Source of the DNA: a virus | Direction: 5' to 3' (one strand) | Virus genome (UHGV): UHGV-0349066 | DNA length: 19,595 nucleotides | Shown: piece after piece, positions 3,656 to 14,484 of the stretch | Layout of the letters: every line of letters begins with the position of its first letter | How positions within the stretch are numbered: the first letter of the stretch is position 1 | Program-made: the position numbers and the translations under genes | The notes under the pieces: model-generated | The model's input: only the letters and a program-made list of their open reading frames with translations | Databases searched by the model: none | What the model was told of the DNA's origin: nothing

Positions 3656-4171
3656 TTACCCCCGGTGCAAGAAAATACGGTTAGTGTTTTCGAATTTCGG
3701 TTCTGTCCACTCCAGTTCCCAGTAAGCCTGGTTAATATCACGAGACGTGAGTTTCAAATTCAAAACACCGGGGATATCGATCTGTTGCAGTAAATTAATA
3801 ATCGACACCAGCTCTTTACGAGGGCGGTTCCAGATAACTTCAAGATACTCTTTCAGACGTTCTGGGTAAGCGACAGGTCGAATATAGACTAACCCAGCGG
3901 GATACTCAATTGCTGAGGGAGTTTTAGGGACTAACCAAACCCAGTCTTTTAATAGCGGTCCTGGGTGATAGTTGGAGAGTTGGGTAAGCGCGTTTGCGAC
4001 CGAACAGCAACGGAAGTAGGTGATATCCCAATCGCGTTCATGACAATTTCGCGCAACGATAACTTTTAAACGGTCAATAGGTTTACCGTCGATAGTCGTA
4101 ACACCAGGTTGATTCGCCAGAATCTGACGTTCACGTTTAGTATAAAGATTCATGTTAATATTTACTGACAT
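3656..4171 (-). CDS. hypothetical protein (171 aa)
   Basis: ATG at 4171 with AAGGAG Shine-Dalgarno 6 nt upstream. Confidence 0.65.
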   Translation of the reverse strand: MSVNINMNLYTKRERQILANQPGVTTIDGKPIDRLKVIVARNCHERDWDITYFRCCSVANALTQLSNYHPGPLLKDWVWLVPKTPSAIEYPAGLVYIRPVAYPERLKEYLEVIWNRPRKELVSIINLLQQIDIPGVLNLKLTSRDINQAYWELEWTEPKFENTNRIFLHRG

Positions 4172-5514: not shown

Positions 5515-6362
5515 AATTGCCCTTCCTTCTTAATGTAATCTTCAACCAACTTATCAAACACGATTTTTATTTTCTCGCGTTCTTCTTCACCCAATTCACC
5601 AGAACAGGTTAGCCCATTTATCTTCCCGTACCGTAATTCCAACACATACTTCAACCGATGACGTAAGGCTTGTTCAAAATGCGTCGGGATATAGATCGGT
5701 TCGAAGTTGTGTAATAAAGTAAAATTGTCTTCGGTGTGTTTAGGGGGTTCGAATTTTACTTTATCTAAGATAGTAAGCCAACGGTGTCTGTCGACTAACC
5801 GATCGTCCCAATATACCGGTTTTGTCTTAGAGGGAGTAAGTGTATTGTAGTTACTGGAATCAGAGACACGGAAATTTGCCGTGACATAAGTCTTCGAGAG
5901 TAACGAGAGAAGACAAATCGTGCCTTCTTCAGGGTAGCTTAAAAGCTCCCCGAGTATGTCTTTAGCTTTCTTGAAGTAGTCTCTAATATAGTCTTCAGCA
6001 ATTGGCTGAATTTCTACTTCTATAGCGCTAATTTGAGGTCCGTCTATCCGTAAAGGAAATTTTAGCTCAGCTTTATATTGCCTATCCGACGTATAAGCGC
6101 GTGTAACAATAGGGTACGTAACAGGCTTAGCTAAATGACGATATTCATCATCTCTAATGACTGAGTAACGTCCAAACCCACCTTTATTCGATTTTGAAAA
6201 AGCGTAAAGGTCTTTTAGATACTCCAGATACTGGCCATCGGTCATTTCATCGGTATTAAATTCACGAATATAAAGTCGTTCAACAAATCCCTTTGTTTGT
6301 TCGTAGTAATAACTGGGGTCCCTATTTGCTAGAATGTGCGGGAGATAATACGGGTGTGGCAT
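5511..6362 (-). CDS. hypothetical protein (283 aa); first gene after terminator and promoter-like motif
   Basis: ATG at 6362 with AAAGGAGG 5 nt upstream; preceded by hairpin and TCAGATATATATTACCTAGG motif. Confidence 0.7.
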   Translation of the reverse strand: MPHPYYLPHILANRDPSYYYEQTKGFVERLYIREFNTDEMTDGQYLEYLKDLYAFSKSNKGGFGRYSVIRDDEYRHLAKPVTYPIVTRAYTSDRQYKAELKFPLRIDGPQISAIEVEIQPIAEDYIRDYFKKAKDILGELLSYPEEGTICLLSLLSKTYVTANFRVSDSSNYNTLTPSKTKPVYWDDRLVDRHRWLTILDKVKFEPPKHTEDNFTLLHNFEPIYIPTHFEQALRHRLKYVLELRYGKINGLTCSGELGEEEREKIKIVFDKLVEDYIKKEGQL

Positions 6363-6389
6363 CTAATCCTCCTTTAGGCTATAACTAAT

Positions 6390-6440
6390 AGAGCGAATGT
6401 AAATTTCGCTCTCCCCTAGGTAATATATATCTGAGAAAAA
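6390..6440 (-). promoter_or_regulatory. phage promoter-like motif TCAGATATATATTACCTAGG followed by 5'-proximal hairpin (copy 1)
   Basis: Minus-strand motif (plus 6417-6434) directly downstream of the terminator T-run; 8-bp hairpin AGAGCGAA / TTCGCTCT at 6390-6412; near-identical motif plus a different hairpin at 1739-1780. Confidence 0.4.
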
Positions 6441-6481
6441 ATAAAAAAAAGAAAGGTAGTAGGGGCTTAGCCCCTACTACC
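6435..6481 (-). terminator. rho-independent terminator ending the fibre/adhesin gene block
   Basis: 12-bp stem GGTAGTAGGGGC / GCCCCTACTACC (6455-6466 / 6470-6481), loop TTA, followed on the minus strand by TTTCTTTTTTTTATTTTTT. Confidence 0.8.
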
Positions 6482-6487
6482 TAAAAA

Positions 6488-7108
6488 TTATTTCATTCCG
6501 TTCTGAGAAAGCGTTGTCCCTGTAAGATGCTTAATAACGATCTTAACAGGTAAATTACTATTCTCGTATTGTACTTCGGTTTCAGACAAATCGGTGATAT
6601 CGATAACTTTAGAGGGTAACTTCGCTAAAACAACACGAATGGTGTGGGTTATTGTACCCGCTGTGGTTTTTGTACCACTAACGTAGAAGTACGCATCAAT
6701 AATACCACCATCTGCTGCCAGGTAAACCAATTTATTTTCCAACAGACACTGGCTATAAATTGACACTCCAGATAATTGCGTAACACCCAGCCTGTTATTA
6801 ACGTCAACCGTTGTTTTGCAGATTACCGCACCACCTGTCAACGTTTTTTCTACCACCATATTTCCCGATAAGGTTTTTGCATCCATTTTTGGTATAATCG
6901 GATGAGCGCCGTCAACAAACAACCCATCGTTGTTAGACTTAAGGATGTTATTCGCCGACGGACTCACTGTAACCTCGGTACCCCCTAATTTCTCAATCGG
7001 GAGTTGGTATTCAGTTTGTTCCTTAGACGCTAAGACTACTACACCCGTGATGTCTTCTGAAAGTGTCTCCAGTTCATGAATGCGCACCTTTCCTACCAGT
7101 TCAGCCAC
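6488..7108 (-). CDS. short fibre-like protein sharing the N-terminal anchor domain of the long tail fibre (206 aa)
   Basis: GTG start at 7108 with GGAGGT 5 nt upstream; N-terminus MAELVGKVRIHELETLSEDITGVVVLASKEQTEYQLPIEKL aligns with the long-fibre N-terminus MAKAVKKIRLHDLRPYTGDIGEGVLLFSKDERDYQLPVREI. Confidence 0.7.
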   Translation of the reverse strand: MAELVGKVRIHELETLSEDITGVVVLASKEQTEYQLPIEKLGGTEVTVSPSANNILKSNNDGLFVDGAHPIIPKMDAKTLSGNMVVEKTLTGGAVICKTTVDVNNRLGVTQLSGVSIYSQCLLENKLVYLAADGGIIDAYFYVSGTKTTAGTITHTIRVVLAKLPSKVIDITDLSETEVQYENSNLPVKIVIKHLTGTTLSQNGMK

Positions 7109-7110
7109 TA

Positions 7111-7623
7111 TTAACCTCCAAAGGTTAAGACACGGTTATCTGCGGTAACGATTAAATCGTTGTCTTTTACTACAGCGGCTTCTTCATCGTTACCGAAAAC
7201 CAGAACGGAGAATTGGCCTTTATAACCTAACGAGTTGGGTGAAACCTGTAACGTTACAGCGTCTTTCCCCACGGTAAATGAATCGTCCTGAAGATCTTCG
7301 GGTTGCAGGTTACTGCCACAGGCTGCGTTAATCGCGTCGATTAAATCGTGTGTGCTAAACCCCTCACCAGTTACTTGCACCAGAATAGGTTGCTGGTTTA
7401 ACCAACGTTCTGCGGTTAAACGGTTGTAATAGATTTGTAACGTTCTGTTACCGGGACGTTTTATCTTTACAACAGCAGTGGTGTCACGATCCATTTCGTT
7501 ACTGGTCTTTACGTCGCTGACTTCAACCTCGTTCTCTTGCAAGTCGAGCTGGAGGTCATGGTTAACCAGTGAAATAACCATGTTAAGTGAAGTTAACGAC
7601 AAATCTGGCGTGAATTGTTCCAC
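7111..7623 (-). CDS. hypothetical fibre-associated protein, paralog of the 13829..14389 product (170 aa)
   Basis: GTG start at 7623 with AGGAGG upstream; shares motifs PDLSL, VNHD and CGSNLQPEDL with the other paralog (FCGTNLQPEDL). Confidence 0.7.
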   Translation of the reverse strand: MEQFTPDLSLTSLNMVISLVNHDLQLDLQENEVEVSDVKTSNEMDRDTTAVVKIKRPGNRTLQIYYNRLTAERWLNQQPILVQVTGEGFSTHDLIDAINAACGSNLQPEDLQDDSFTVGKDAVTLQVSPNSLGYKGQFSVLVFGNDEEAAVVKDNDLIVTADNRVLTFGG

Positions 7624-7678
7624 GTATGGTTACCTCCTATGATTGGGGAGACGTAAAATGTTGGCTAAAAACATTTCA

Positions 7679-7688
7679 CCCCCCCCCC
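7679..7688. repeat. homopolymer C10 (G10 on the coding strand) in an intergenic region
   Basis: Ten consecutive C at 7679-7688 between the gp38-like paralog stop (7723) and the start of the 7111..7623 gene, flanked by two AT-rich hairpins. Confidence 0.9.
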
Positions 7689-7722
7689 GATTACGTTTTC
7701 AAGCACATTCGCTTGAAAATTA

Positions 7723-8166
7723 TTAACTGATTTTGAAATCTCTTAACGTACCAGTTGATTTCATCACGTTTTGGAACGCGGCACTAATGTTGTTGGTCCA
7801 GTAATAATGTTGACCATTAATAACCTGTTGATAAGTCAACGTACAAGTATTACCACCCAGGTTTACAGTAATGTTAGAAGCTCTCCCACCTTGTAAGTAA
7901 ACCGCTAAAGTAGGCTTTGCGTTGGTAAATATCGTCGTTAACTGTAACTCGATACCTACTAAAGTTCCCACCCCGCAGTTACCCGCGTTTTGAATGGTCC
8001 CCTGATTTTTCTGGTTTAACGGCCAGTTTGGTCCTACTGCACCCCATTTATTACCTAAGGAATCGCTATATGCGGCAGTTGCAATTTTACAGCCCATTGA
8101 TCGTCCCACCATTTGACTCATCATAAAAGGTCTACCCAATCCTAATTTACTACCCGCAGCGCTCAT
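7723..8166 (-). CDS. gp38-like adhesin paralog with divergent C-terminal domain; N-terminus apparently disrupted (likely extends to ATG at 8225 across a frameshift)
   Basis: Minimal ORF from ATG 8166. The in-frame sequence upstream back to the stop of the preceding gene encodes VDGVASGWVGSSARNETGEQW, homologous to the N-terminus of the 8242..9024 product; AAGGAGG plus ATG at 8225..8223 is in another frame, separated by a G4 run. Confidence 0.55.
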   Translation of the reverse strand: MSAAGSKLGLGRPFMMSQMVGRSMGCKIATAAYSDSLGNKWGAVGPNWPLNQKNQGTIQNAGNCGVGTLVGIELQLTTIFTNAKPTLAVYLQGGRASNITVNLGGNTCTLTYQQVINGQHYYWTNNISAAFQNVMKSTGTLRDFKIS

Positions 8167-8241
8167 CCATTGTTCGCCCGTTTCATTCCTAGCTGAAGAT
8201 CCGACCCATCCTGACGCTACCCCATCTACCCTCCTTTTTAA

Positions 8242-9024
8242 TTAAACACGTGAACCGTATATTGCACCTACTGCGTCCCATCTTGGCGCATTACCAGTAA
8301 CAGCTTTACCAGCTGCTCCGCCGTTATATTCTGTACCGTTACCATGAGTATTACATCTTCCTCCAGCAGCACCGACATTACCACCCGAACCGCCTGTATA
8401 TGCACTAAGAGACCCCTCACCAACAGATCCTTTACCAGGAGCGGAAATAGTACCAGCAGTTGCACCGGAACTCATATGAGAGGAAGACCCGCCAGCACCG
8501 AATGGGCGACCACCGCCACCACCAAATATTAGTCTACCCCTGTTACCGCCACCACCGCCGCCACCGCCTCCGGCAATAGCGCCACGGTTGGTTATACGCA
8601 GTCTGTTTCCTATTCCGTTCTGTATTGCGGTTCCACCTGCACCGCCTGGTGAGTTAGAACCGCCGTTGCCTCCTCTGCCGTATACTGTAACCCCAGGATT
8701 GATAACGAGTGTAATGGAGGAGTTCGGTAGGTCGCCAGGGAACTCTAAACAAGGAACTCCGCTACTATAAGACACTAAATCCCCCGTAATAGTCACAACG
8801 ACAGCAGTAGAGCCTAAAGAACGTAAATAGTTAATAAGAGTATCCTTATTATAGCTATGGTTAGCACCAATAGAATAATGGACCTCTTTTGATTTTCCCG
8901 CCAATTGCGACATCCAGCCTGGAACCGGCACACCAAGTGTGCGCATCGCGCCAGACATCCATTCGTTACCAGCTTCAGCTTTTGCTGAAGAACCAATCCA
9001 ACCACCTACGCCGACAACTGCCAC
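8242..9024 (-). CDS. T2-type gp38-like tail-fibre tip adhesin, glycine-rich (260 aa)
   Basis: GTG start overlapping the fibre TAG stop (TAGTG) with GGGAGA Shine-Dalgarno. N-terminus MAVVGVGGWIGSSA...WMSQLAG and motifs ITGDLVSYS, YGRGGNGG, AIAGGGGGGGGG, GGGGGRPFGAGG match my recollection of T2/K3-type gp38 adhesins with glycine-rich motifs. Confidence 0.75.
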   Translation of the reverse strand: MAVVGVGGWIGSSAKAEAGNEWMSGAMRTLGVPVPGWMSQLAGKSKEVHYSIGANHSYNKDTLINYLRSLGSTAVVVTITGDLVSYSSGVPCLEFPGDLPNSSITLVINPGVTVYGRGGNGGSNSPGGAGGTAIQNGIGNRLRITNRGAIAGGGGGGGGGNRGRLIFGGGGGRPFGAGGSSSHMSSGATAGTISAPGKGSVGEGSLSAYTGGSGGNVGAAGGRCNTHGNGTEYNGGAAGKAVTGNAPRWDAVGAIYGSRV

Positions 9025-12000
9025 TAGGATCTCCCTTTGATTTCGTTAACCTCTTGACGCAACGCTTTCATACCCTCTACTAACAGCGCAATAACACCAT
9101 TGTAGTTTAGACGTAAACGTTTTTCGCCTGAAATGACATCATCATCCTCAGACACAAGTTCAGGTAACGCTTCTAATGCGTCTTGAGCAATTAGACCTAC
9201 AGAGGTCTGCCAGCCGTCGTCAGGATGCTGAATTTCGTACAAATAACCGGTTAGTAACTCTAACCGATCCAAAGCTTTATCTAGTTTCACCAGATTACGT
9301 TTGTTACGACGGTCAGAACGAATCTGTACGTCGTTAAACGAACCGTTACCGCTGCCAGTAACGTTATGACCAAAGGTTACTTGACCGTTAGCATTATTAA
9401 AATACAACGGACGTAGACCGTTCCAGGAACCCGTTGCAGCTTGACCGGCGTCGGTTACTAAGAAATAGGTATTGGCACCATCGTTACGTAACATAAAGCC
9501 GTAGTTGCCGTAAGCGATTCGAAAATCAGGGTACTTAGTGACCAATTTACCGTTAACGGTTAAATCGCCACCTATAGTACCGCCCCCTGACGGTAACGCA
9601 CCGATGTCACCAGCGTTAGGCTTGTTGTGTGTGCTGTAAATCAGATAGACGGTACCGTCTGTTAGTCCTGCGGGTTTATTAGCCGTATAACTTGGCGATG
9701 TATGAATCGTTACGTTGGCATTACTAGTGTAATCCCACTGAATAGTAACACCGGTGGCGTAATTACCTATTTCAACATAAATATCGTAAGTGTCACCAGA
9801 TGTATTCACCCATGCAAAATTAGCGAAGCCGACTGAAGTCAGTCGCCATAACGCACCAGTAATACCTTTTGGATTCCCATTTCCTGCACGCAGAACCAGC
9901 TCAGAGATACCTGCTTGATGTGGGGAACCAACGTTAAACCCTGCACCACCAATCATGCTTATGTAAACCACGGAACTGGCTTGCGGCATCGTTACAGTTG
10001 CCAGTTTGAACCATCCGGCACCACCATTAAAAGACACAGTTGTTGTGTTCGCGGCACCAACATTTCGTAAGAATTTTCTCTTATCTGGAATATCGGCACC
10101 ATTCTGTTTCTTCTGCAATGACCCACCGGCCAATTCTACAGTTTGGCCAAGATTTAAACTTTCAGCCGTTATTTCGATGTTTTTGGTGCCGTCAAATGCG
10201 ATACCGTTAATGGTACGCGCTGTCTGCAATTTTGTTGCAGTGGCCGCGTTTCCGGTGGTCGACTGATTGCCCGTTTGGTTTACGCCAGGTAAGTTGATGT
10301 CTTTAGTACCATCAAAAGCTACACCACCTATATTTCGCGCAGTCTGGAGCTTAGTCGCTGTCGCGGCATTCCCCGTAGTCGATTGGTTACCGGTTTGGTT
10401 CACACCGGGCAGACTAATGTCTTGCGAACCGTCAAAGTTAACACCACCGATCTTACGTGGCGTTTGTAACTTAGTAGCGGTCGCTGCATTACCTGTCGTA
10501 TTCTGGTTACCTTGCTGGTTAACCCCCGGTAAATTGATATCCCCAGTACCGTCGAAGGTAACGCCCCCGATTCTGCGAGCGGTTTTCAGTTTCGTCGCGG
10601 TAGCGGCGTTGCCAGTAGTATCCTGATTACCGGTGGTATTTACACCAGGAATACTATCACGGGCAGTATAAACTTGTGCCCAATCTGACCACGGCGCATC
10701 CGCTGTATCACGTCGACTACGAATATAAACGGGTGCGTGCGCACCACTCGTGCCCGACCAACCAATTAACAGCTCACCTTCACCTAATGCGGCAGAACCA
10801 CCCAAATGCAGCAAGTTACCATAAGCGGTCGGATAACCGTTATTGTAAACTTCGTACATCTGAATACCAGGCGTACCTTTGTTTGAACCGGTTAGTGCAG
10901 TAACCCGACCACGACCTACCAGGGTGTTGATATTGATGTCAGCAGAACCATCGAATCTTACACCGTTAATATTTCTGGCGGTTTGAAGTTTAGTGGCTGT
11001 ACCAGCATTACCCGTGGTGTTTTGATTGCCCTGTTGGTTAACACCTGGGAGGTTAATATCACCACTACCGTCGAAAGCGACTCCACCAATTCTACGTGCG
11101 GTCTTTAATTTCGTTGCGGTTGAAGCATTGCCTGTTAACTCGCCTGCTAACCCTTTTGCAAAGGTCTGTTTTTCTGCCCAGGTGTGTGCTGCATTCAATA
11201 CAGGCATCTGTCGTGGTGTAATCGTACGACTACCTTTCTCACCAGCGATACGTACTGCAAAGAATCGATAGTTGGCAGTAGACACCGTACTACGCCAAAC
11301 CAACATACTCCGGCCTGATGTAGCGCCATCTGATGGACCAACCAGAATGCTAACTAGGTTACCGTCAATAACACCCCAATCCATTCCCGTAGGAATGTTT
11401 TTCATGGTGTTAAGCGGCGTACAGATTAACTCACCCGGTTTAAAGTCATAGGTTTGCCAGTCTAAAGGATCAACATTCGCACGTTCACCGCCGATACCTA
11501 ATACCAGCGGAAGCGAATACGATGTGAAAACCTCACGCCAATCGCTCCAAGCGTTACCCGTACGGATACGTTGAAATTTACGACCTTTAGTTTCTGTACC
11601 CGTACCGTAAGTAGTATAATTCTGTTCGACCCCTGTACCGTCTAAGCGTAAGGTAACTTCACAAACGCCTAATATGGTTTCACCAGAAGAACCGGTAAGT
11701 GGACCGTTAGTTGCTTCACCAGTGACACTGAAACGTCCCGGTTTAACGAGATCGTTAAAATTGGCTTTAAAGAAAGCACCGTCAGTCTGATAACCAACCT
11801 GAATCCAATCTTCCCATTGCGGGTTTGATGAATCCCATGTTGCGGTCAAACCACGAACATACATCGTACCACGACGTGTGGTGTATCGTTGCAACCGTCC
11901 GAAAAGACCACCTTCCATTACTTCTAGTACGCCTTGCGCGCCACCACCTTCTTCAGGGTAATGTCTGCTAAAAACAGCCAGCGAACTGCTTGAGTTTCGC

Positions 12001-13828: not shown

Positions 13829-14389
13829 TCATGTAGCCGGGTTTTCTTCAGCTGTGTCGTCATCTGGAACCTCAAAGGTAAGAACAGCATCATCACCAAT
13901 ACAGAAGATCGCGTCATCTTCGTTTGCTAATGCTCGTTCGGTTGTATCGAATAACGTTACCATAAACGCATTCATCCACGCAGGAGAATCGTCAGCAACG
14001 TTAACAGCAATGGGTTCGTTACCTAAGGTGATATCTGCAGCACGTAAATCTTCGGGTTGTAAGTTCGTTCCGCAGAATTCATTTACAACACCTAAAATGT
14101 CACGAAGGTTGTCTTCGGTACCATCTAACGAAATCAAAATAGGTTCAGACGCTAACACTTCGTCCGCATCCAAACGGTCGTAATAAACAACCACAGAAGC
14201 ACCATCAGGTTTCCTGATTTTTGTAATCTCTGTCAGTGTGTTACGACGCGAAGTGGTCGGGGACGGGTTTGCCATAGTGTTGCTAATACGGATTTCGTTT
14301 AGAGACAACCGTGAACCGTTATCGTGGTTGATTAAAGCGACCACTAATTCGGCTGAGGCCAGACTTAAATCAGGTACGTAAGTAGTCAC
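13829..14389 (-). CDS. hypothetical fibre-associated protein, paralog of the 7111..7623 product (186 aa; start refined)
   Basis: GTG at 14389 with GGGAGG 5 nt upstream; start position matches the paralog start (MTTYVPDLSL vs MEQFTPDLSL). The ORF-track N-terminal extension to 14458 is the translated terminator hairpin and T-run. Confidence 0.7.
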   Translation of the reverse strand: MTTYVPDLSLASAELVVALINHDNGSRLSLNEIRISNTMANPSPTTSRRNTLTEITKIRKPDGASVVVYYDRLDADEVLASEPILISLDGTEDNLRDILGVVNEFCGTNLQPEDLRAADITLGNEPIAVNVADDSPAWMNAFMVTLFDTTERALANEDDAIFCIGDDAVLTFEVPDDDTAEENPAT

Positions 14390-14404
14390 TAAAACCTCCC
14401 AGAT

Positions 14405-14450
14405 CAAAAAAAAAATAAAAACACCTACCGCCCATAGAATCGGGCGGTAG
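14405..14450 (-). terminator. rho-independent terminator, 6 nt upstream of the ribosome-binding site of the 13829..14389 gene
   Basis: 9-bp GC-rich stem CTACCGCCC / GGGCGGTAG (14425-14433 / 14442-14450), 8-nt loop, then GTGTTTTTATTTTTTTTTT on the minus strand. Confidence 0.75.
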
Positions 14451-14484
14451 GCAGTCATTTTACAGCTAAAAATCGAAGTAGTTA

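Follow-up and report, generated by a model that had tools for sequence, protein, structure and literature searches.

Contingency loci of the classical type lie within ORFs or between the hexamers of a promoter, and there a single repeat unit alters expression; poly-G tracts are contingency loci in Campylobacter phages. Translational riboregulators include leader hairpins that sequester the Shine-Dalgarno (SD) sequence, accompanied by an anti-anti-SD strand. Simple-sequence contingency loci have recently been reported in phages in a preprint on T2 and T4 (PMC12633550). In the pyrG attenuator of Bacillus subtilis, a 5′ poly-G binds the pyrimidine-rich terminator strand by base pairing (10.1101/732214); the extra G residues are added there by reiterative transcription, the system responds to CTP and the alternative helix is the terminator itself. 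The conserved intrinsic terminators of phiKZ consist of CCYCCCC-HWWD-GGGRRGG followed by TTAT (PMC10914365). We compared these systems with a run of ten C at positions 7679-7688 of the virus genome UHGV-0349066, of which a stretch of 19,595 nt, referred to here as the window, was analysed as a whole.

Relatives of the window are filed as circular ‘plasmids’ of about 222 kb: a 221,873-bp record from E. coli 98232, a urine isolate (NZ_CP173450.1), and a 222,441-bp record from an Enterobacter ludwigii gull isolate (NZ_CP134650.1). Further relatives came from IMG/VR (the longest of 220–225 kb, one of 151.6 kb and one fragment of 5.9 kb) and from metagenomes (four contigs of 200–225 kb and one fragment of 2.8 kb). 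When the region and the whole window were searched by megablast against 50,697 phage records, the gp38 segment alone matched, and neither a protein-based scan nor a degenerate DNA pattern gave matches in the genome contigs. The E. coli record encodes beta subunits of a multisubunit RNA polymerase (phrog_3295 and phrog_3015) and a phiKZ-type major head protein. A small virion protein of the window, 170 aa long, matches virion proteins of SPN3US and of Asesino-type giant phages at 30–34% identity. The polymerase, the head protein and these matches together indicate that the window derives from an uncultivated lineage of phiKZ/SPN3US-type giant phages. A highly conserved motif, TCAGATATATATTACCYAGGKGAGAG, occurs in the window at ~6409-6434 (minus strand), after an intrinsic terminator at 6454-6482. 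The 222-kb relative contains five copies of it, all in gene sense and each past an AT-rich stretch, and it is probably an early-type promoter of the phage polymerase.

All genes of the region lie on the minus strand. The gene of the 170-aa protein (7111-7623; phrog_2935/1037) is the first of the second fibre sub-module and a paralogue of ORF 13829..14458. For the latter, a GTG near 14388 is probably the start, rather than the upstream ATG chosen by the ORF finder; this GTG is preceded by a canonical terminator hairpin whose tail is T10 (A10 on the plus strand, 14406-14415) and by the SD GGGAGG. Downstream of the 170-aa gene, a 206-aa short fibre protein (6488-7108, minus strand), whose N-terminus matches that of a 1533-aa fibre, precedes the terminator at 6454-6482. 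The E. coli and Enterobacter relatives have lost its gene (window 6488-7108 against L001 5985-6031 and L002 6085-6136), where a remnant of ~15 codons, ending in …GTTLSQNGMK*, directly follows the 170-aa gene. On the other side of the spacer lies a gp38-like adhesin paralogue (phrog_1121; 7723-8225, minus strand, ATG at 8225-8223; 7723..8166 in the ORF list). In some relatives (L013 at ~270-300, L002 at 7340-7390 and L015 at ~3790-3840), this paralogue is preceded by its own G-run/C-run hairpin, for example GGGG-UGACCU-CCCCCC, and by a G-rich SD. The gp38 gene itself (8242-9024) has 82–92% nucleotide identity to gp38 of T4-like phages of the RB49/JSE type and is ~84% identical to ‘receptor-recognizing protein’ genes of ~110-kb phage-plasmids of E. 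coli and Shigella, a distribution that points to exchange of an adhesin cassette across unrelated phage families. In L012 (~880-960; MAVE01000154.1), the Gly-rich part of gp38 is joined directly to the middle of the N-terminal region of the paralogue, which appears to be a deletion or a fusion of the two adhesin genes.

The spacer between ORFs 7723..8166 and 7111..7623 measures 99 nt (7624-7722). A sequence-only reading of the window had located there, between the gp38-like paralogue and the gene at 7111..7623, the C10 run, a 9-bp palindrome at 7696-7719 and a 7-bp hairpin at 7656-7676, and had placed the run ahead of the second fibre sub-module; all three are found where it put them, the ORF list agrees on the position of the spacer, and the tract indeed belongs to the 5′ leader of the opening 170-aa gene. 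In the mRNA the C10 run becomes G10. In this sense, the spacer continues from the upstream stop with UUUUCAAGC GAAUGU GCUUGAAAA, CGUAAUC and G10, then with UGAAAUGUUUU UAGCC AACAUUUUAC G UCUCCCC, AAUCAU, AGGAGG and UAACCAUAC, and ends at GUG. The 7-bp inverted repeat is AAATGTT/AACATTT (7656-7662 and 7670-7676). The AGGAGG (7633-7638) is the SD of the 170-aa gene, 9 nt ahead of its GTG start (7623-7621), and the pyrimidine arm UCUCCCC (7645-7651) is complementary both to the G run, its partner, and to the GGAGG of this SD.

A tract of this length greatly exceeds chance expectation. The C10 is the single site with C8 or longer in the window, where dinucleotide shuffles gave a mean of 0.18 such matches (2 of 200 shuffles reached three), and no other G or C run of at least 6 was found across the 19.6 kb. 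In the complete 221,873-bp relative, C5 occurs 51 times, C6 once and G6 three times, followed by two long tracts alone, a C9 and a C10, the latter being the homologue of the tract studied here. With ten residues, the run exceeds the ~7–8 or more that is taken as the length criterion for contingency loci of G or C.

It had also been suggested that the C10 could be an assembly artefact. Homopolymers are error-prone in sequencing, and the window does have a 1-nt frame disruption in another G tract; however, all its other genes align in a single frame to the proteins of the relative, and 11 other independent assemblies, from isolates as well as metagenomes, have a tract at this position, in flanking sequence that differs from that of the window by about 4–20%; across the adjacent gene, the genomes have about 80–99% identity to the window. 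An artefact is thus exceedingly unlikely and effectively refuted as regards the existence of the tract, its exact count being certain to within one residue either way.

With the window, the element is present in 12 independent genomes of the ~222-kb lineage, and its length differs among them. The run is G10 in the window, L001, L003, L007 and L014, GAG10 in L013, G9 in L004 and L015, G13 in L012 and GAG7 in L016, while L002 and L005 carry GGAGGGGG. The longest uninterrupted G run therefore ranges from 5 to 13, and ten is the commonest length (exactly 10 in the window, L001, L003, L007, L013 and L014). The expectation that such a homopolymer is prone to slipped-strand mispairing agrees with this variation, and the comparison of lengths that had been proposed returns forms of 9, 10 and 13 together with interrupted ones, so that the tract is not invariant. 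Repeat number thus differs between close genomes, as in contingency loci, in a comparison made between genomes only.

The G10 run and the 7-bp hairpin described before are parts of one structure, a 17-bp composite hairpin in the RNAfold prediction, referred to here as hairpin 2 (7645-7687, minus strand). It comprises a basal stem of 7 G:C/U pairs (G 7681-7687 with UCUCCCC 7645-7651), a 1x1 mismatch, an AU-rich apical stem of 10 bp (7653-7662 with 7670-7679) and a loop of 7 nt (7663-7669). Within the G run, 7679 pairs with the C at 7653, 7680 stands opposite a G as the G/G mismatch, residues 7681-7687 form the basal pairs with 7651-7645, and 7688 has no partner. The helix therefore holds nine of the ten G residues, and it stops 6 nt short of the SD of the 170-aa gene. 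The 116-nt spacer sequence has a predicted energy of -36.7 kcal/mol (z = -3.45; none of 200 shuffles was equally stable), and hairpin 2 alone, a stable GC-rich hairpin, accounts for about -25 kcal/mol. The base of G-run:C-run pairs and the AU-rich apical stem were predicted in all seven variant sequences folded, including the deeply diverged L002 and L005. For L016 (GAG7) the predicted basal stem is weaker (MFE -20.3 kcal/mol) and is missing from the centroid structure. The L002 and L005 alleles are predicted to hold the SD and the AUG within a separate small hairpin, so the logic of the leader may differ between alleles. A search of Rfam 15 at a permissive E-value returned only noise, the sole match being sR24 (12.2 bits against a gathering score of 36, E = 8.3). 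A G-quadruplex was ruled out by reasoning, as a single G10 run cannot provide four G tracts with loops.

Outside the G run, hairpin 2 is 94–100% identical in the window-type genomes, while third codon positions of the adjacent gene are only 62–89% identical in most of them. L002 and L005 share a diverged allele of the hairpin, with 68–76% identity and the same fold. In a structure-aware alignment, 96% of the cells were paired, against 55–65% when the partners were slid; the substitutions comprise one pair changed from G-C to A-U and six pairs altered on one side that can still pair. Covariation was not significant (shuffles matched the observed score in 203 of 500), since the alignment represents only about three independent lineages of sequence. 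The high conservation in the window-type genomes could partly reflect recent recombination instead of selection. Two unrelated upstream contexts, one with the 9-bp palindrome and the other a long AT-rich spacer, meet the element exactly at AATC-G(n), and this junction indicates that hairpin 2 belongs to the cassette of the downstream gene.

The same junction also speaks for a tract that acts at the DNA level, as a recombination-prone cassette boundary, or that has no role at all and is a neutral by-product of slippage within one arm of a helix. Of the four conceivable combinations of hairpin and upstream alleles, three were seen, the locus is highly mosaic, with the 206-aa gene lost in some genomes, and the gp38 gene is common to T4-like phages and phage-plasmids. 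However, the edge of a functional cassette should form such a junction even where there is no hotspot, and in most window-type genomes the conservation of the hairpin exceeds that of neighbouring synonymous sites. Moreover, the sense strand of the window-type variants is 5.7–14.9 kcal/mol more stable than the antisense strand, since the helix relies on G.U pairs, which favours a structure formed by the mRNA over one formed by DNA. We regard a DNA-level role, or none, as quite improbable.

To relate the length of the G run to the SD, the full leader was folded in silico with G0 to G15, and every functional statement made here about the leader is a thermodynamic prediction. With G0-G4, the probability of the basal stem was ~0 and the SD was unpaired at ~0.27; the corresponding values were 0.25 and 0.38 with G5, 0.83 and 0.54 with G7, and at least 0.99 and 0.54–0.64 with G9-G15, this level of SD accessibility being already reached over G6-G15. 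From G9 to G15, the MFE shifts by less than 2 kcal/mol, and predicted energy, basal stem and SD accessibility are all flat over this range and nearly flat from G7. When the G run is reduced to five or fewer, or replaced, the UCUCCCC arm is predicted to pair with the SD instead. Without the run, SD accessibility in the window allele was 0.28 instead of 0.59. The L002 allele behaved likewise, with 0.17 instead of 0.50, and its alternative pairing is CCCUA with UAGGG. Mutation of the C arm in the window allele, the sole allele given this change, restored 0.59. The predicted change in SD accessibility is only about two-fold.

Our best explanation, which we hold tentatively and rate a little below an even chance, is that the G run is a structural arm of a conserved 5′-leader hairpin that would protect the SD and buffer drift in tract length. 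The G run forms the 5′ strand and UCUCCCC the 3′ strand of the 17-bp hairpin, which is part of the 5′ leader of the 170-aa gene and accompanies that gene in exchanges of upstream sequence. The C/U tract being complementary to the SD, the G run would hold it in a very stable helix, and the SD would stay open; hairpin 2 may also be a stable block between the two fibre sub-modules. The length of the tract corresponds approximately to that of the pyrimidine strand to be covered, roughly 9 nt. As G can pair with C as well as with U, a slip of a few bases would do no more than move the register, so that the fold and probably expression would be buffered. Contraction to five G or fewer is the only change predicted to matter. 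Protection of the SD, like the absence of consequences of the natural differences in length, is deduced from modelled folds, and according to these the G10 tract is probably not an on/off switch.

A role of this kind resembles the pyrG attenuator in that up to ~10 G would neutralize a C/U-rich strand through G-C and G.U pairs and block an inhibitory alternative helix. Unlike in pyrG, the G residues of the window are encoded in the genome and the predicted alternative helix would occlude the SD. In common with SD-sequestering leaders, the G run, the C/U tract and the SD have mutually exclusive pairings in silico, in two diverged alleles; unlike in such leaders, no ligand, temperature or trans-acting trigger is evident, and the protective helix has such stability that the element looks constitutively open.

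The alternative that slipped-strand length changes tune or switch the expression of the second fibre sub-module, making the tract a contingency locus, has several points in its favour. The locus serves host recognition, its G/C homopolymer has at least nine residues in most forms, the length differs between close genomes (5–13, and 9–11 in a sister element described below), and G/C runs of at least 7 are otherwise absent from the 222 kb. A nearby coding G tract alters the reading frame between genomes. In Moraxella catarrhalis uspA1, a 5′-UTR poly-G of 10 versus 9 reportedly alters expression. Homopolymers of at least 6 have been reported to be depleted from the tail-fibre genes of other coliphages, against which long tracts in this fibre locus stand out (PMC12633550). 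However, the tract lies outside annotated ORFs and no credible promoter spacer crosses it, so it does not have the length-critical placement of classical contingency loci; the G10 sits instead in a leader helix whose predicted fold accommodates differences in length, with structure and SD accessibility flat over most of the observed lengths. L002 and L005 have exchanged the homopolymer for GGAGGGGG and retained the hairpin, which makes a hypermutable tract dispensable. We consider a contingency function of this tract improbable, and a graded tuning of expression by slippage is the less likely outcome. The sequence-only reading had proposed that slippage could modulate expression through spacing or structure. 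Its premises of a mutable tract in an expression-control region hold, the tract lying in a leader, but a structural rheostat over the natural range finds no support in the flat G9-G15 predictions, and promoter spacing provides no basis for it either.

Indeed, a scan of 6300-9200 detected no sigma-70-like promoter with a valid -10 in the spacer, and the lineage has an RNA polymerase of its own. Inspection of the spacer also revealed no TATG, the late-promoter motif of phiKZ (PMC7598289), although this motif may not apply to the present lineage. Two candidates were rejected. TTGAAA-N18-TGAAAT, which spans the tract, is without the essential -11A and went unreported by the scan, and the other upstream allele lacks its -35. 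A promoter-like match at 7746-7719 lies mostly within the upstream ORF and does not span the tract.

The 9-bp palindrome (hairpin 1; 7696-7719, minus strand) is an AU-rich stem-loop of TTTTCAAGC and GCTTGAAAA that starts 4 nt past the upstream stop (7723-7725). It is present in the window, L003, L004 and L012-L016 and absent from L001, L002, L005 and L007; it accompanies the ‘FKIS/LRIS’ allele of the upstream gene and is missing from the other upstream allele. In L013, it shows one compensatory change from G-C to A-U.

Hairpin 2 also contains a speculative upstream ORF of 14 codons (MFLANILRLPNHRR*; 7630-7674, minus strand), which starts 4 nt past the G run and whose stop TAA directly follows the main SD. 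Accordingly, the G run could be the SD-like site of an ORF of 10–14 codons within the hairpin that couples or gates translation of the 170-aa protein. The window has G10-UGAA-AUG, and the diverged alleles have an AUG at the ideal spacing of 7 nt from GGAGG (MILATSYPLP* in L002, MLLETFHPLP* in L005), with GAGG cores in L013 and L016. An ATG or GTG (GTG in L013) with an SD-like G run is kept in all alleles, the stop lies within or beside the main SD in every allele, and L013 has a G10 tract at the SD position of a genuine gene, the gp38-like paralogue. However, the putative SD and AUG are buried in a hairpin of about -25 kcal/mol, with an unpaired probability of ~0 for the AUG, L012 has a +1 frameshift within the ORF, the peptide is poorly conserved, and the ORF is short enough to arise by chance; the sister element, furthermore, has no ATG. 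A translated upstream ORF is, on balance, very unlikely to explain the tract.

The sister element, E1 (NZ_CP173450.1, also L017, 32541-32563; C9 at 32552-32560), and the homologue of the C10 are the only long G/C tracts of the 222-kb relative. The sense strand of E1 reads AUC-G8-[GUGA]-CCUCCCCC-GAU and forms an 11-bp hairpin with a GNRA loop, in which the G run is again the 5′ arm; the U-rich tail AUAUUUCUCU comes next. The G run of E1 measures 9–11 in five relatives. E1 is intercistronic, between two small genes that match the PHROG families of the 170-aa protein (phrog_2935/1037), a link at PHROG profile level only, as a BLASTP comparison between the 170-aa protein and the product of the gene that follows E1 was not significant (E = 0.11). 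Both elements have AATC-G(n)-UGA...CUCCCC in common, and on sequence grounds the element of the window looks like E1 with an AU-rich insertion of 25 nt and without the U tail.

This kinship bears on the possibility that hairpin 2 is a degenerate or specialized transcript-boundary element without any role at the SD, be it an attenuating terminator, an RNase III-type site or a stabilizing stem-loop. The G run would still be only a helix arm, and attenuation would act on the phage RNA polymerase. A GGGG-loop-CCCC hairpin with a T run is the standard gene-sense terminator form of the 222-kb relative and also of the window (at 6454-6482 and in the hairpin upstream of the T10 at 14406-14415), and E1 has a U-rich tail besides the shared core. 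The 17-bp helix with one internal mismatch, placed between cistrons, also resembles the RNase III sites of T7, which are helices with an internal mismatch between cistrons; even with its mismatch, however, it falls below the ~20–22 bp typical of RNase III substrates. The terminators of phiKZ are likewise C-run/G-run hairpins (PMC10914365), and hairpin 2 shares with them short, GC-rich, nearly homopolymeric C and G arms, an intergenic position and a giant phage with its own RNA polymerase as host genome. Unlike them, hairpin 2 has the G arm first and a 10-bp AU-rich apical stem, lacks a U/T tail, abuts an SD and moves with the downstream gene rather than the upstream one. As a phiKZ-type terminator motif it was rejected, with arms in reversed order, a long apical insertion and no TTAT. 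A terminator scan of 6300-9200 found no site within 7624-7722. Whichever allele is considered, the sequence after hairpin 2 lacks a U tract (CCCCAAUCAUAGG for the window type, CCCCCUACCGUAGG for the L002 type), the 3′ flank in the window being AAUCAUAGGAGG. We judge a pure boundary element unlikely, though it is the chief competitor of an SD-protecting leader.

A second G tract of the locus lies within a gene. In the gp38-like paralogue of the window, the ATG runs into G4 (8220-8223), giving ATG GGG TAG, so that the start codon is off-frame and the 172-codon frame is otherwise intact. The tract after AT is G5 in L001, L006, L007 and L014 and G8 in L004, all in frame, and G9 in L016. The G9 of L016 and the G4 of the window put the start out of frame, and in both the remainder of the ORF is undamaged. 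Either the tract at 8220-8223 is a genuine contingency tract within the coding sequence of an adhesin, or it reflects a sequencing error in a homopolymer; it is closer to the classical definition of a contingency locus than the intergenic C10. Taken together, the host-recognition locus might contain a small set of hypermutable poly-G tracts that jointly act as phage contingency loci, which we regard as rather unlikely. The coding tract after the ATG would then toggle the gp38-like second adhesin on and off, and the leader G10 would set, or at times collapse, expression of the second fibre sub-module, for which it could work via an anti-SD switch or the ORF encoded by the hairpin. If this were true, a phage population would have mixed receptor-binding equipment.

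For the biology of these giant phages, the favoured leader model means that an eye-catching homopolymer can be explained as a helix arm matched in length to its pyrimidine partner, real and mutable and yet structurally buffered in the predictions, and this account weakens the case for a regulatory switch at 7679-7688. Both long G/C tracts of the surveyed 222-kb relative are leader or intercistronic hairpins ahead of related small virion-protein genes. Should the contingency interpretation prove true, simple-repeat bet-hedging would extend to host recognition in giant phages. If protection of the SD is true, genome-encoded poly-G would serve as a ‘universal’ partner for C/U strands in the translational control of a phage.
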